DNA of 32,000 nucleotides from Candidatus Heimdallarchaeota archaeon (GTDB lineage: Archaea; Asgardarchaeota; Heimdallarchaeia; Heimdallarchaeales; Kariarchaeaceae). Below, in pieces: positions 24,723-30,191 of this stretch (within the stretch, counting starts at the first letter, position 1; each line of letters starts with the position of its first letter). A program made the position numbers and the translations under genes. Under the pieces are notes generated by a model that was not told the origin of the DNA, did no database searches, and saw nothing but the letters and a program-made list of their open reading frames with translations. The DNA lies in contig JASBSB010000004.1 of NCBI GenBank assembly GCA_030149205.1, forward strand, positions 1 through 32,000, in the 5' to 3' direction.

Positions 24723-25490
24723 CTATGTCTCTATAGGAGTGGAATTCTTGAGGGAAGGAAAGTCAATTTTAAGCATAAACCAATCAATTATAACTAAATT
24801 AATTAACACAAATGTCTTCGCAACCACATGGCCATTTACCAATGGAATTGAGTTTGTGATGTTTTCAAAAAATGTGAAAAATAGCAAATTTTCAAGGTAA
24901 TTCAATGTCAGAAAACCAAGGATGATGAATTTCCACATTGTAAGATCTGCCAATACTATATTCTTGATCATATTTTCAAAGTATAGCCCCATAATCAGAA
25001 CCACCCCTAATATTCTTAAGAGATTCCAGTCACCAGCAAAGAAACTCAAAAAATACAATGAGATTAAGGTGATTATCCTAATAAAGTAGAAACCAATGCT
25101 ACTTTTCTCAAGGGTCTTAGGAAATAAGTTAAATTCAAACTTAAATTTCGGGTCATCTGAATTGGAATCTGTTAATAAAAAGGGAAATATGATCAGTAAC
25201 ATTGAAATTAAGCTTTCTGATGTTATACTACTGATTAAGGCGATTACACTTAGGACATAATAAACCAGGTAATTTTCCTTAGGATCAGGTTCAATTATCC
25301 CTCGAAGTGATATCAGACTAATTATTTTGGAGATAACCAGAAAAATTACCAATCCTCCAAGAAGACCAAAACCCTCCCAGCTTGAAAATGACACATTATT
25401 AAGGAGCTGAAAATAAAGCACTATTGGAAACAGCAGCACCATTAGCTGCCTCAGAACAAAATTTACAACAGGGAGGTGTTTTCGTTTCAT
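24723..25490 (-). CDS. Multi-pass membrane protein (partner-like)
   Basis: About 7 TM segments; its ATG overlaps the module B stop (ATGA, 25487-25490). Confidence 0.7.
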   Translation of the reverse strand: MKRKHLPVVNFVLRQLMVLLFPIVLYFQLLNNVSFSSWEGFGLLGGLVIFLVISKIISLISLRGIIEPDPKENYLVYYVLSVIALISSITSESLISMLLIIFPFLLTDSNSDDPKFKFEFNLFPKTLEKSSIGFYFIRIITLISLYFLSFFAGDWNLLRILGVVLIMGLYFENMIKNIVLADLTMWKFIILGFLTLNYLENLLFFTFFENITNSIPLVNGHVVAKTFVLINLVIIDWFMLKIDFPSLKNSTPIET

Positions 25491-25726
25491 ATTCTAACTC
25501 CGTCGACGAAGCTGGTGACGCCCCTTTTGATCTCTGTGAGTGCCTTGTCTGTCACCCGAAACACCTCAGAGACAAAGTCAAACAGGGTCGCTCCAGGCCT
25601 GCCAATGATGCTCATCACGGTGTTCCACAGGTTCTGCTGCCAGCTTTTCAGGGACGGTTCATTCAAAGTTAGAACTCGGAACTTTGAATTAAATTCTAAT
25701 TTTAGCTGTGCAATGTTGATATTCAC
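25487..25726 (-). pseudogene. Orphan module B: core-homology block with no tip
   Basis: Reads SWQQNLWNTVMSIIGRPGATLFDFVSEVFRVTDKALTEIKRGVTSFVDGVRI*; 56% GC over 25501-25660; carries two 6-nt in-frame insertions relative to the main gene. Confidence 0.8.
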
Positions 25727-25938
25727 AAAGTTAAATAATTTTCTTTATTTATAAATTTACTCCACAAATGACAGAATTGAAATTCTATTGATTGGAATTA
25801 TATCATTATTTGAGATGACCTTTTGTCCCTGTCACGTATTTGAGTGTTATAAGTCACTTGTGTAAATACTACCCCTATTTTTAACTAACCATTTTCAAAT
25901 ATCTATAAACTTTGAAATCTTATCTGTAGATTGAAAAA

Positions 25939-26679
25939 TTAAAACCAACCATTTGATGTAATTAATAATAGTCTAAACAAAAAAATCGAAGCAGCAATAA
26001 ACAAACTAAGGTTTATTATTACTAGCCCTGGTAGATAAAGCATTAAAAGCGATTTAATAGAGTTTTCACTTCCTTGGTTATCTGGAGGATTGAAGTAATA
26101 AAGAAATCTAGGAAGTAAACCCAATGTAATTCCAGACACAAATATCAATAAGGTGATCATCTGTTCAACACCTCCGAGATAGACATCTATAATACGTATA
26201 GGGGCTAATACTATCGCAATTCCAATGAACAGGAGATCTAACTTCTTAGAGGTAGCAGGTACAAATTTGATAGTCCATTTCAACAATCTCTTAATCTGCT
26301 TGGAAGGTACAGAAAGACCACAGAAAGTTAATATTTGCTCGCTTTGATTAAACTCTCTGTTCAGCTCATCCGAAAGGTTTAGAATGACACCAAGCATCCC
26401 AAACCCAAGTGCCATAAAAAAAATATAACTTCTTGTTAGTCCAGATTTTACAGAAGGGGATAGCAGGCCAATTATAATTACAGTTAATCCACCACCAGCC
26501 ACAAAAAGGATAAAAATTGCTAAATTAAAAACCGTATATCTCTTAAATGAGGTGCCTTCAGCTATAAAGGAAAGAAAATGAGAGTCCCCGAATTTCAATA
26601 AATTCCTAGGGGGGGGTGATTCTGAGGCACTCAATCTACTAATACCACCCACTTTCAGTACCTGCCAGCATTTGAACAA
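25939..26679 (-). CDS. Multi-pass membrane protein paralogous to the tip of module D
   Basis: See the alignment in findings (DVY..G...I.....V.GI.LG.LP and terminal GW[YF]). An alternative TTG start at 26634 lies just after the module D stop. Confidence 0.75.
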   Translation of the reverse strand: MFKCWQVLKVGGISRLSASESPPPRNLLKFGDSHFLSFIAEGTSFKRYTVFNLAIFILFVAGGGLTVIIIGLLSPSVKSGLTRSYIFFMALGFGMLGVILNLSDELNREFNQSEQILTFCGLSVPSKQIKRLLKWTIKFVPATSKKLDLLFIGIAIVLAPIRIIDVYLGGVEQMITLLIFVSGITLGLLPRFLYYFNPPDNQGSENSIKSLLMLYLPGLVIINLSLFIAASIFLFRLLLITSNGWF

Positions 26680-27772
26680 GGTAATAAATCGCCAAACCTA
26701 TGAAAACCATGCTCAAACTGAAGAATAAAGGGATATAAACTTTAAAAACCCCTTTTGTAGGCGTACCTACACCAGATCCAATCTTCATGAATAATGATGG
26801 AAGCTTCCCTAAAAGAATGCCTATTACAGCAACTGCTACATCAATTGCACCGTCTGGTCCCTTTTCATACACATCAAGTAAGTTGGGAGCCACTGATAAA
26901 AATCCAAGTAATGCAAGGATATAAATTGTATATCTACTTAAACCACCCAAAGAGTATGCCGTAACCCTTATCAGTTTTTCTAAGTGACCGATATTTGAGA
27001 ATAATTTGCTAACAAACCCAATGTGATTTTTAGTCTCATAATTCCTTTTCATTTCATGGGCTAATTCAAAGGTTGATTGTAACAAAGCTAATCCAAGTGT
27101 CAGATAGAGAAGCAATTTTCTGAAAACAACTATTTCTTTTGCTTTCTTTGTTGTTCCAGTAAGCTTTCCCTCAATAACCATGGCAACAATTACAGCAGCC
27201 AGCATAGCACCGTTAACTATCAAATAAGATTGAAGAGAAGGTGTTCGTCCTAAGGTTGATAAAAGAATTGAAAAGAGCAACATAAACCCTCCCCAAACCC
27301 CAATTAATGCAAGTGTATCTCCTAGAGCATCTGAATCGACTGGCTTTAGGGAAAGTGTTTCAAATCTTACTTGAAGACTTGAGATTGGGCTTCCTATCTT
27401 TAAAATCTTCTGGTTAAAAATAAAAAAGAAATTTTGGATGTCAAAGGTAATAGTCAGATTTAGTAAATTTTTGTTCTGCTTGGAGATGATAATTGAATCT
27501 CCTAGTCTTGTGATTAAAGTCCTATCCTGAAAACTTTTAATGGAAAAAATAGCAAAGAGTGTGCTTAGAATGATTTCTTTCAAAGATAAATGAAGTGCTA
27601 ATACTATTGCTTTCATCACATTTTCCCCAGCCGCATTGATTCCATCGACAGTGATGCTATCATGGATGGAATATTCGCTAATTTTGGTAAAAATGAACTG
27701 GTATGAACTCCCTAAAGTAAACACTTGCTGATGGGCACAGGGATACACAAACTGATTATTCCTTACTATCAT
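26639..27772 (-). CDS. Orphan module D: leader + diverged core block + ~6-TM tip
   Basis: IHDSITVDGINAAGENV aligns to IKDGVTVDGVKEAGEFI of the main gene. Alternative start is the GTG at 27748. Confidence 0.8.
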   Translation of the reverse strand: MIVRNNQFVYPCAHQQVFTLGSSYQFIFTKISEYSIHDSITVDGINAAGENVMKAIVLALHLSLKEIILSTLFAIFSIKSFQDRTLITRLGDSIIISKQNKNLLNLTITFDIQNFFFIFNQKILKIGSPISSLQVRFETLSLKPVDSDALGDTLALIGVWGGFMLLFSILLSTLGRTPSLQSYLIVNGAMLAAVIVAMVIEGKLTGTTKKAKEIVVFRKLLLYLTLGLALLQSTFELAHEMKRNYETKNHIGFVSKLFSNIGHLEKLIRVTAYSLGGLSRYTIYILALLGFLSVAPNLLDVYEKGPDGAIDVAVAVIGILLGKLPSLFMKIGSGVGTPTKGVFKVYIPLFFSLSMVFIGLAIYYLVQMLAGTESGWY

Positions 27773-28017: not shown

Positions 28018-28740
28018 TCAGTTAGCCGGTGATCTCTTTTGAATTTCTTTTAGAAGTTTTTTTCTGTAATTACTCTGTTTGAAACGTTTCCCTGATACAA
28101 AGGGAATGAATGCGGTCAAATGATCTGGCCAGGCATCTAACATATCCTCAGTTATGTAAAGGTTCAATGAAGAGGGTAGCAGAGCAATTATTACGCATAT
28201 CACAAAAAAAAATCCCTGTATTCCTTCAAAGGGTAGGAAACCGTATGTGTTGCCAATGATAAAAAAGTTCCACCAGATGATTGAGGTCTCTGAAAATTGT
28301 GATAAAATGAGAGCAGGGTTAGACCTCTGATTTGAAAGAGGTGCTAACTTAAAGAGGATATATATAAATGCAAGATAAATAAGTAAATAATCAAAAAATA
28401 CAACAAGGAACAAAATCCTTAGATTAAAGAAAACTGAATAGATGATTGTGCCTACAATTACAACATTCATAAGTAACCATGAACTAAAGAATGTAAATTT
28501 ACTTTTGAAGGATGGTTGCTCAATAAGTTGGTAAACAGCAAATAACCGTCTCTGTGGCAAGAAATGAATGATTGTGAGCAAAATCAGCTCTGCTACCGAA
28601 ATAAGTGAAGTAACCCAAGATTCAAAATTAACACCTTGAAAGATAAATATGAAATTGATCACTAGGAGAAGTATAGCTACTACTATTAAGAGCAAAAGTG
28701 TCTTTATTCCAATTAATGGGGTTTCAAGTTCTTGTTTCAT
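28018..28740 (-). CDS. Multi-pass membrane protein, partner/immunity-like family II
   Basis: Paralog of 28987..29718 (FQG, IHF.PQRR, SQ.SE and AWPD.LTA..PF..GK); SD AGGTGA upstream. Confidence 0.75.
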   Translation of the reverse strand: MKQELETPLIGIKTLLLLIVVAILLLVINFIFIFQGVNFESWVTSLISVAELILLTIIHFLPQRRLFAVYQLIEQPSFKSKFTFFSSWLLMNVVIVGTIIYSVFFNLRILFLVVFFDYLLIYLAFIYILFKLAPLSNQRSNPALILSQFSETSIIWWNFFIIGNTYGFLPFEGIQGFFFVICVIIALLPSSLNLYITEDMLDAWPDHLTAFIPFVSGKRFKQSNYRKKLLKEIQKRSPAN

Positions 28741-28986: not shown

Positions 28987-29718
28987 CTAGTGATTCTCAA
29001 TAAATCGCGAAAATTTATCAACCTCAATTAAATTTGCCTCTCTCTTTAGCTCCTTTCCTGTGTGAAATGGTAACAATGCAGTAAGTTTGTCTGGCCATGC
29101 TTTCATCATATCTTTTGACAGCCAGATTCTTCCAAGCAAGGCTGCAAGTATAAAGACAAACAAATAGAGAAGAAACACATAAACTGACAAAGTTCTTTCT
29201 AGATAATTTTTAAATATATCTCGAAATGTGAGACTTAAGATACTGAAATTTACCAGATGAAGAAATACTTCACTAAGCTGTGAAAATGAAATAAGTAATT
29301 TAAATTTAAGTGGTCTTATAGAACTCAGAGTCCAAAGTACAAAGAGAAGATAACCACTTAAAAACATTGGGAAATTAAATAAATAAAGTAGTGTGGAACC
29401 ACTGATTATTGAATAGAAAAGCACCATAACAAATAACATATTAGGCAGAGCCCAAAAAGTGACAAAAAGTATCTTATGTTGTTTATCCTTCTTCAGGTTG
29501 GTGAAAAGTTGATAAAGAATAATAACACGTCTTTGTGGAAAAAAATGAATGAATACCAAAATGCCTATGACTATTAATGAAATTATACTCTCGAACAAAT
29601 TTTTGAAAGATATTCCCTGAAACACAAAAATTACTACAAAGATAAAAAAAAGGGTTATAGATGCAAATTCTAAAAATATCCTAGTGCCATTCATTCTTGA
29701 GTCTGAGGTATTAGACAT
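28987..29718 (-). CDS. Multi-pass membrane protein, partner/immunity-like family II
   Basis: Paralog of 28018..28740; starts 8 nt after the stop of 29727..30191; SD AGGTGA. Confidence 0.75.
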   Translation of the reverse strand: MSNTSDSRMNGTRIFLEFASITLFFIFVVIFVFQGISFKNLFESIISLIVIGILVFIHFFPQRRVIILYQLFTNLKKDKQHKILFVTFWALPNMLFVMVLFYSIISGSTLLYLFNFPMFLSGYLLFVLWTLSSIRPLKFKLLISFSQLSEVFLHLVNFSILSLTFRDIFKNYLERTLSVYVFLLYLFVFILAALLGRIWLSKDMMKAWPDKLTALLPFHTGKELKREANLIEVDKFSRFIENH

Positions 29719-29726
29719 TTTATCAC

Positions 29727-30191
29727 CTAAAAAATACTCTTTGCAATTTTTATTGCAAAAAGATTCGATATTAAGAAATGTATTAATGCCATAACTAACA
29801 AAAATGCATAAAATGGTACAAGCTGTGTTAATTTCGCCAAGATTGAAAGTTCAGCTGTTGCTGTTGCCTCAGCAACTGTTTTCCAAAGAATTGATGAATA
29901 GAGGACAATCATAATTGGTAAAATAATCCATCCCTCTTTGAACCACTCTGGTAATTGATACAAGGGGTCTTGGGTTGGACTATAGGTATCACTCATAATA
30001 AAAGAAAGAGCAGCTCCAAAAAACATTCCACCCAAACCAGTCAAATATTTGGATGCAGAGGTAACTGGGAGTACTAAACCAGATATGAAACTCATTACAT
30101 CTATAAGAGCATATGAGATATCTATAGGTGTCGTATTGGACTCTGGTATTCTGGTGGTTTCTGCTGAAAATTCGTTGAAGTGTAAAAACAC
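29727..30191 (-). CDS. Orphan tip fragment (G/A/T-rich hydrophobic), probably 5'-truncated
   Basis: Contains TGLGGMFFGAALS; its C-terminal VPF...IHFLISNLFAI parallels module C VPF..IHLAMGVWFAI; no SD and no core block. Confidence 0.55.
   Translation of the reverse strand: MFLHFNEFSAETTRIPESNTTPIDISYALIDVMSFISGLVLPVTSASKYLTGLGGMFFGAALSFIMSDTYSPTQDPLYQLPEWFKEGWIILPIMIVLYSSILWKTVAEATATAELSILAKLTQLVPFYAFLLVMALIHFLISNLFAIKIAKSIF

Follow-up and report, generated by a model that had tools for sequence, protein, structure and literature searches.

A membrane tip and the gene behind it are paralogues in a polymorphic-toxin-like array of an Asgard archaeon: a possible decoy partner

The window analysed here is the first 32 kb (32,000 nucleotides, nt) of contig C1 (JASBSB010000004.1) of a Candidatus Heimdallarchaeota archaeon (assembly GCA_030149205.1), whose genome amounts to 3.3 Mb in 12 contigs. 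From about 15 kb to the end of the window all genes lie on the minus strand. Among them is an array whose repeating unit is a tip gene, encoding a conserved N-terminal leader and core followed by a variable hydrophobic C-terminal domain, and then an adjoining partner gene. The partners in the array of the window are membrane-protein genes, each lying directly 3′ of its tip gene. Our subject is one such unit, the cassette protein D (the tip) and G, the open reading frame (ORF) that stands behind it. How are D and G related, and what might G do?

D (26639–27772, minus) is a protein of 377 amino acids (aa) with an ATG start. Its leader and core take up residues 1–78; within them the conserved family core, the IxD..TVDG..AGE region at residues 23–78 (27539–27706), is recognized at E = 1.5e-18 by a hidden Markov model (HMM) built from the genome's own copies. 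There follow a segment of predicted β-strands, taken from a low-confidence model, and six hydrophobic helices, a to f. Helix a (residues 153–175; 27248–27316), placed by a hydropathy scan and by alignments, is conserved among D-type tips and is absent from G. The remainder of the protein, residues 176–377 (26642–27247), is the domain shared with G, and consists of predicted helices b–f and a 44-residue basic loop, ending in GWY and the stop codon. The ORF G (25939–26679, minus) encodes 246 aa when read from TTG 26679, and 237 aa when read from GTG 26652 as in the public protein set. It opens with a basic tail of 48 residues (26536–26679; 7 K+R versus 3 D+E) that is unrelated to D. Its shared domain (residues 40–246; 25942–26562) has five predicted helices that match b–f of D, and ends in GWF and the stop codon. 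G lacks the leader, the conserved core, the β-rich segment and helix a, that is, the whole carrier side of D. The boundaries of the shared domain were drawn from BLASTP, from hhalign and other alignments (MAFFT in the case of D) and from a helix map; the limits of both genes agree with those given in the first-pass annotation.

G occupies the partner-gene slot exactly, abutting or overlapping the stop codon of D as the other partners do with their tips. In its longest form it overlaps the last 13 codons and the stop codon of D in a different frame (26639–26679, 41 nt). Measured stop to stop, tip and partner are −24 to +8 nt apart in the nine cassettes other than D–G, and −55 to +8 nt apart over all 10 of this genome. 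D and G are not separated by any intergenic space, and a promoter belonging to G alone could lie only within the coding sequence of D. The unit as a whole is flanked by stretches without a called gene, 245 nt upstream of D and 212 nt after G; the former holds only a 60-aa ORF with a TTG start, while the latter, which runs up to the next cassette fragment, holds no ORF. Oligo-T runs serve in archaeal transcription termination, and a run of five T residues directly after the stop codon of G (25934–25938, minus) is a possible end of a D–G transcript. There is no other candidate partner for D at this locus. A fusion of D and G by read-through or frameshifting was considered and rejected: beyond its own stop the frame of D meets three more, and D ends where P0003, one of its two homologues, ends.

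Might the likeness of two hydrophobic proteins, both rich in L, I, V, F and G and only 21–23% identical, be a matter of chance or composition? BLASTP aligns D 184–377 with G 58–246 (21% identity, 39.7 bits, E = 3e-8), and the alignment reaches the last residue of both, the GW-aromatic end (GWY and GWF) that the first-pass annotation had pointed out. The three blocks which it had aligned by hand (7/29, 12/31 and 8/33 identities, recounted by eye) are present and prove to be parts of this single alignment. The shared membrane domain spans about 190 residues and five helices, colinear to the C-terminus. The match takes in the long basic loop between helices c and d, together with Asp, Gly and Pro positions. 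The Smith–Waterman score of D against G is 127, while shuffled G scores 42–47 ± 7–9, giving z values of 9–12.6. Four kinds of shuffle were made, 1000 of each, either global or confined to windows of 5, 10 or 20 residues so as to preserve the hydrophobic pattern, and 0/4000 reached 127. Shuffled hydrophobic controls were the point at which the first-pass annotation had thought its own alignment might fail; with 0/1000 in each kind, the likeness is significant. Reversed G scores 49 against D. Among 19 real membrane proteins of the array, pairs without another sign of kinship score at most 72.

Other methods gave the same answer. Among the 9,192 ORFs of at least 60 aa in this genome, D and G are each other's only phmmer match (E = 6.6e-6 and 4e-5). 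When a profile of three D-type tips was compared with G by hhalign, the probability was 89.7% and the E-value 1.9e-6 over 193 columns. The matches are, moreover, enriched where the tips themselves do not vary: of the 22 positions at which three D-type tips are invariant G keeps 14, whereas identity at the variable columns is 17%. As far as sequence statistics go, chance similarity is rejected, and the probability that we would leave to it is minute. We conclude that, judged by its sequence, G is securely a true paralogue of the membrane domain of D, and in that sense the carrier-less duplicate of a tip domain that had been proposed from the hand alignment.

How might the two proteins lie in the membrane? 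In G, 16 K+R fall on one face and 2 on the other, a clean positive-inside pattern which predicts that the N-tail and the long loop are inside. The homologous loops of D lean the same way (10 versus 5 K+R), and a parallel packing of D with G is likely on the basis of these charges. AlphaFold2 models of D and G, made from alignments of 3 and 4 sequences, have a mean predicted local distance difference test score (pLDDT) of about 50, too low for comparison of folds; their predicted helix order is colinear in the two proteins, an agreement that is not independent of the shared alignment. A prediction of the complex between D 147–377 and G 40–246 scored 0.00, a 'no answer' that counts neither way.

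If G is a paralogue of D, are the other partners paralogues of their tips? We compared the post-core region of each tip with its downstream ORF by single-sequence Smith–Waterman alignment and window shuffles, for 10 pairs from this genome and 17 from four relatives. Very remote relations could escape this comparison, and in the fragmentary relatives some of the 'downstream ORFs' are probably parts of the tip that a frameshift has cut off. D/G was the sole similar pair among the 27 (z 11); the other 26 lay between −1.7 and +1.8. The first-pass annotation had read tip and partner as paralogues and had suggested that every tip be aligned with the gene behind it. Such alignment (Smith–Waterman for the 27 pairs, hhalign in addition for D/G) upholds the idea for D/G and for none of the other 26 pairs. 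The weaker hints of kinship that it had seen in the main pair of the array came to nothing (best BLASTP segment E = 4.2; Smith–Waterman z 0.5). D/G is the exception, not the rule. In the other cassettes the slot is held by an unrelated partner gene, so that D/G departs from the pattern of its family.

This distribution bears on a structural role for G, in which D and G, being homologous, would be subunits of a common membrane assembly such as a hetero-oligomeric channel or anchor, with G a required structural component and no inhibitor, and the array serving to diversify a surface or membrane complex. Homologous membrane domains often hetero-oligomerize, and no toxin or immunity family was recognized in the array. 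In a same-genus genome, furthermore, the core terminates a protein of 2,508 aa or more that is truncated by the end of its contig (L054:1-7524, minus, G044:C209) and that has a signal-peptide-like start, a lectin-type domain (Laminin_G_3, E = 4.6e-19) and an S/T-rich composition; at the C-terminal end of such a giant a polytopic tip could be a simple anchor. On the other hand, the absence of tip/downstream homology from 26 other pairs means that hetero-oligomers of paralogues are not the general way of the family, and displaced copies together with partner-only remnants are a signature of conflict systems (Zhang et al. 2012, PMC3482391). We consider a purely structural G to be rather improbable.

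What lies behind D-type tips elsewhere? When 1.84 billion representatives were searched with HMMER, the only matches were D, G and a 360-aa metagenome protein from the Joint Genome Institute (JGI), a full-length D-type tip that is 26% identical to D (E = 2e-18). One further D-type tip, in a same-genus genome, came from a six-frame search of 83 genomes. In word-indexed protein searches D and G retrieved only themselves, and scans of metagenome contigs with G and D returned no relatives. Neither of the two other D-type tips has a G-like gene behind it. The metagenome contig continues with the start of a hydrophilic gene, 70 residues long, whereas the same-genus tip is followed, through an ATGA overlap, by a 304-aa leucine-rich repeat (LRR) protein (Pfam LRR_14, E = 3e-14; L005:406-1320, minus, G044:C110). 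These two downstream genes are unrelated to each other and both look soluble. Since a soluble LRR protein fills the slot behind a D-type tip, the partner genes of this family are not always membrane proteins. A remnant of the relative's LRR partner was sought near D in this genome, and none was found.

How old is G, and from what did it arise? The only nucleotide match between the two genes is their physical overlap of 41 nt. In the codon-aligned region third positions are 33.5% identical, about random for the composition, and second positions are 54% identical. The chance of an open frame of 246 codons at this base composition is 7.6e-9. Because third positions stand at chance level and yet the frame is open, G is an old copy that has been maintained as a protein; the open frame, together with the 14 of 22 tip-invariant residues that are kept, shows constraint at the protein level. 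In pairwise comparison the best score of G is that with D (123); with the other two D-type tips it scores 72 and 62. Scores between the three tips are 145–168. A maximum-likelihood tree of the four sequences places G with D (bootstrap 77) on a branch twice as long. These comparisons suggest that a D-type tip was, most probably, partially duplicated to give G. That the duplication was local and that G then diverged fast is the simplest account of its origin, and a moderately supported one. In sequencing runs D–G is covered only via a contig 100% identical to the window, probably from the source sample; two other runs cover the flanks only.

By what signals might G be translated? Its single in-frame ATG is at codon 89, and none precedes the first membrane helix. 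The candidate starts are TTG 26679, GTG 26652, TTG 26634 and TTG 26598. In most of the other partner genes examined, a GGTG or GGAG motif precedes the ATG start by 5–8 nt. G has the look of a makeshift gene, which fits an origin in a partial duplication. We also noted a run of eight C residues (26609–26616, minus), in a genome of 35% GC, within the region that codes for the N-tail of G and just upstream of the in-frame TTG 26598; slippage might occur at this run and so turn the long form of G on or off.

A gene with such weak signals might also be no partner at all. G would then be a stranded, headless D-type tip, the C-terminal part of either a former cassette protein or a partial tandem duplicate, kept as recombination stock or surviving as an undecayed relic with no protective role, and D would have no partner here. 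This alternative, akin to the second orphan tip that the first-pass annotation had itself allowed for, stays in consideration because the translation signals of G are weak, with neither an ATG nor a well-placed ribosome-binding motif, and because headless copies occur elsewhere in the arrays; that G is a singleton, and that D-type tips elsewhere pair with unrelated genes, fits it too. Core-less, tip-like ORFs are in fact common in the arrays, and those of the relatives match tips at E-values from 1e-7 to 1e-51. This genome holds a 124-aa headless remnant of the type of the tip at 34333–35457 (C1 32934–33305; L007:2707-3078; Smith–Waterman score 250, z 24). Behind it lies a 236-aa ORF (C1 32215–32925) whose N-terminus resembles, by eye, that of the partner of that tip (33583–34326), and the two together look like a tandem cassette duplicate in decay.

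Is G then one more of these? It differs from the other headless copies in several respects. The two full-length headless copies that we examined in relatives keep an F/E-T-L-G motif ahead of the membrane domain, and the other core-less ORFs are short or frameshift pieces, whereas G starts only after helix a. The remnant in this genome still has a copy of its own partner behind it, and G has none. G abuts the stop codon of D to within a few bases, so that a recent beheading would need a deletion that ended there by coincidence. G is also far more diverged than the other headless copies and still intact, and third positions at chance level beside an intact frame of 246 codons argue for long selection on the protein. 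We regard the stranded tip as a serious rival, albeit a somewhat unlikely one.

We prefer the reading, to which we give a probability of roughly 0.4, that G is an anciently diverged, N-terminally truncated paralogue kept as the cognate partner of D, and that it acts by like-with-like association as a decoy or capping subunit. G would insert with its N-tail and long basic loop in the cytoplasm and would pack, like with like, against the homologous helices b–f of D. It would cap or mis-assemble whatever the membrane domain of D forms, and in this way would be a protective decoy. We infer the local duplication, the co-transcription, the association of D with G, the protection, and that D is harmful at all. 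Decoy-type protection by G is plausible; the two roles that the first-pass annotation had proposed for it, poisoning of an oligomer and homotypic self-recognition, are hypothetical. The fuller proposition, that a truncated duplicate of a membrane 'warhead' has been turned into the protective partner of a polymorphic toxin-like cassette, and is a case of co-assembling paralogous decoy immunity, is one that we put forward only tentatively.

Several observations weigh against the decoy. A D-type tip does not need a paralogue, because the other two pair with different genes, and G is a singleton in the collections searched, so that no conserved D–G pairing came to light. The starts of G are only TTG or GTG, with the motif partial or badly spaced, unlike those of most other partner genes, and translation signals of such weakness make the production of G in protective amounts less credible. 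Stand-alone D has no signal peptide to fix its topology, and its packing with G could be parallel or antiparallel. Uniquely shared residues single out no clear sister of G (14 with D, 10 and 13 with the other tips), and for that reason the support for a local duplication is only moderate.

The array to which D and G belong extends beyond the window. The HMM finds 17 core-bearing ORFs, all on C1, at 23–57 kb and 94–100 kb; a full C-terminal domain is present in 10/17, and the C-terminal domains of the 17 are mutually unrelated or distantly related. The N-terminal region of D is common to about 13 ORFs on the contig. Within the class the core is confined to this genus and one other genus of the same family (5/83 genomes including this one, and 4/11 in the family). 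Its longest copy in this genome, in the 614-aa 'main' gene, has no recognized domain. The last 250 or so residues of the 2,508-aa protein include a stretch that resembles, by eye only, the part of this gene that precedes the core, so that the 614-aa gene may be the truncated end of a giant carrier.

Do these proteins belong to any known family? None of ten array proteins, D and G included, has a Pfam match above cut-off; PADLOC matched no array protein, and a search of the PDB by sequence gave no family match for them. Neither YD, FHA or other known carrier repeats nor known toxin or immunity domains were recognized in the array proteins. A PDB match to an Mrp antiporter subunit (E = 0.042) was taken as membrane-helix noise, and the ESM Atlas returned nothing usable. 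With its conserved core, variable membrane tips, tightly linked partner genes and displaced copies, the family is, as far as its sequences tell, archaeal and polymorphic-toxin-like.

Parts of cassettes are found on their own as well. In most of the tips that were read, a motif like [F/E]-E-T-L-[G/S] stands ahead of the first membrane helix (for example at D residues 138–141), and headless copies in relatives (L046:425-1231 and L038:209-1027) start just upstream of it; the motif may mark a further boundary of exchange, in addition to the GC-rich core junction. A cassette without a tip lies at 24723–25726 (minus), where a 79-aa core fragment (25487–25726) leads through an ATGA overlap into a 255-aa partner (24723–25490). 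A second copy of this tip-less cassette lies at C1 47904–49012, and the 30 nt before its ATG (48671) are identical. It appears that, twice, the partner has been retained and the tip is cleanly missing. A 259-aa ORF (54709–55488), with an N-terminus similar to that of the 255-aa partner, lies after the 614-aa 'main' gene. Two paralogous membrane genes of 240 and 243 aa stand in tandem at 28018–28740 and 28987–29718 (minus; Smith–Waterman score 263), with good GGTGA-ATG starts and no tip in front, and look like orphan partner genes; a 154-aa membrane ORF (29727–30191, minus) is just upstream of them.

Why would a decoy of this kind matter? In polymorphic toxin systems an immunity protein is usually seen as a binder which is unrelated to its toxin and co-evolves with it. 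If the decoy reading is right, the membrane domain of the toxin has itself given rise to the protective gene, and a new immunity gene could be had quickly in three steps (duplicate, truncate, retarget). To our knowledge paralogous-decoy immunity is unreported for the polymorphic toxin systems of prokaryotes. Such immunity would also give prokaryotes a counterpart of the like-neutralizes-like logic of holins, wtf drivers and BCL-2 proteins. The D–G pair is small, two genes in about 1.8 kb. Should G be only a stranded tip, the case still documents decay and the storage of modules in archaeal arrays.

By layout the closest known systems are the ionophore toxins of contact-dependent growth inhibition (CDI) with their membrane-protein CdiI immunity proteins; the orphan arrays of Rhs/CDI loci are also near. 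Like Rhs/CDI loci that carry orphan tip/immunity cassettes, the present array has a conserved core, exchangeable C-terminal tips, many on one core, a small linked gene directly behind each tip, and displaced partial copies (Zhang et al. 2012, PMC3482391; Jamet and Nassif 2015, PMC4436062). It differs in that its 'orphans' are complete small genes with a conserved leader of their own, and in that none of the recognized toxin or immunity domain families was found in it by Pfam, PADLOC or the PDB. In archaea polymorphic toxin systems are rare or missing, as are most of the immunity superfamilies (PMC3482391). In the CDI ionophores the polymorphic C-terminal domain is predicted to be a membrane-spanning bundle of five helices behind a variable entry region, and CdiI proteins are hydrophobic, toxin-specific two-helix hairpins of 72–100 residues, unrelated to the toxins (Halvorsen et al. 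2024, PMC11630599). In the shared domain of D five hydrophobic helices are predicted, although the AlphaFold2 models are poor, and the gene of a membrane protein lies directly behind. G, on the other hand, is no two-helix hairpin but a protein of 246 residues and five helices, homologous to the tip. The array proteins have no VENN motif and no Pfam family, their host is archaeal, and they bear no sequence relation to known ionophores; any toxicity of D is putative.

In full-text searches of the literature no polymorphic-toxin tip was reported to have a paralogue as its immunity gene, which is weak evidence of novelty. In the holin/antiholin pairs (λ S105/S107, phage 21 S68/S71), in CidA/LrgA and in BCL-2 versus BAX/BAK, a hole-former is checked by a co-assembling copy or paralogue that differs in its N-terminus or topology. 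G resembles an antiholin in being a paralogue of helices b–f of D with an altered, basic N-tail and without helix a. Antiholins, however, differ from holins by a few residues, while D and G differ at 77% of positions. Neither protein has a holin, LrgA, CidA or BCL-2 Pfam match, and their neighbours are further cassettes, with no lysis cassette.

Closest by proposed mechanism, as an analogy only, are the wtf genes of fission yeast, in which a multi-pass membrane poison is neutralized by a protein that shares its membrane domain and has a different N-terminal cytosolic tail, and in which paralogous antidote-only genes can suppress a driver by mimicry (PMC5478261, PMC7591262, PMC6283613, PMC10721834). 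The wtf system is eukaryotic and uses alternative starts in one gene to make near-identical products, the antidote being the longer. D and G are two genes whose products are 23% identical, and the putative antidote is the shorter, minus a helix.

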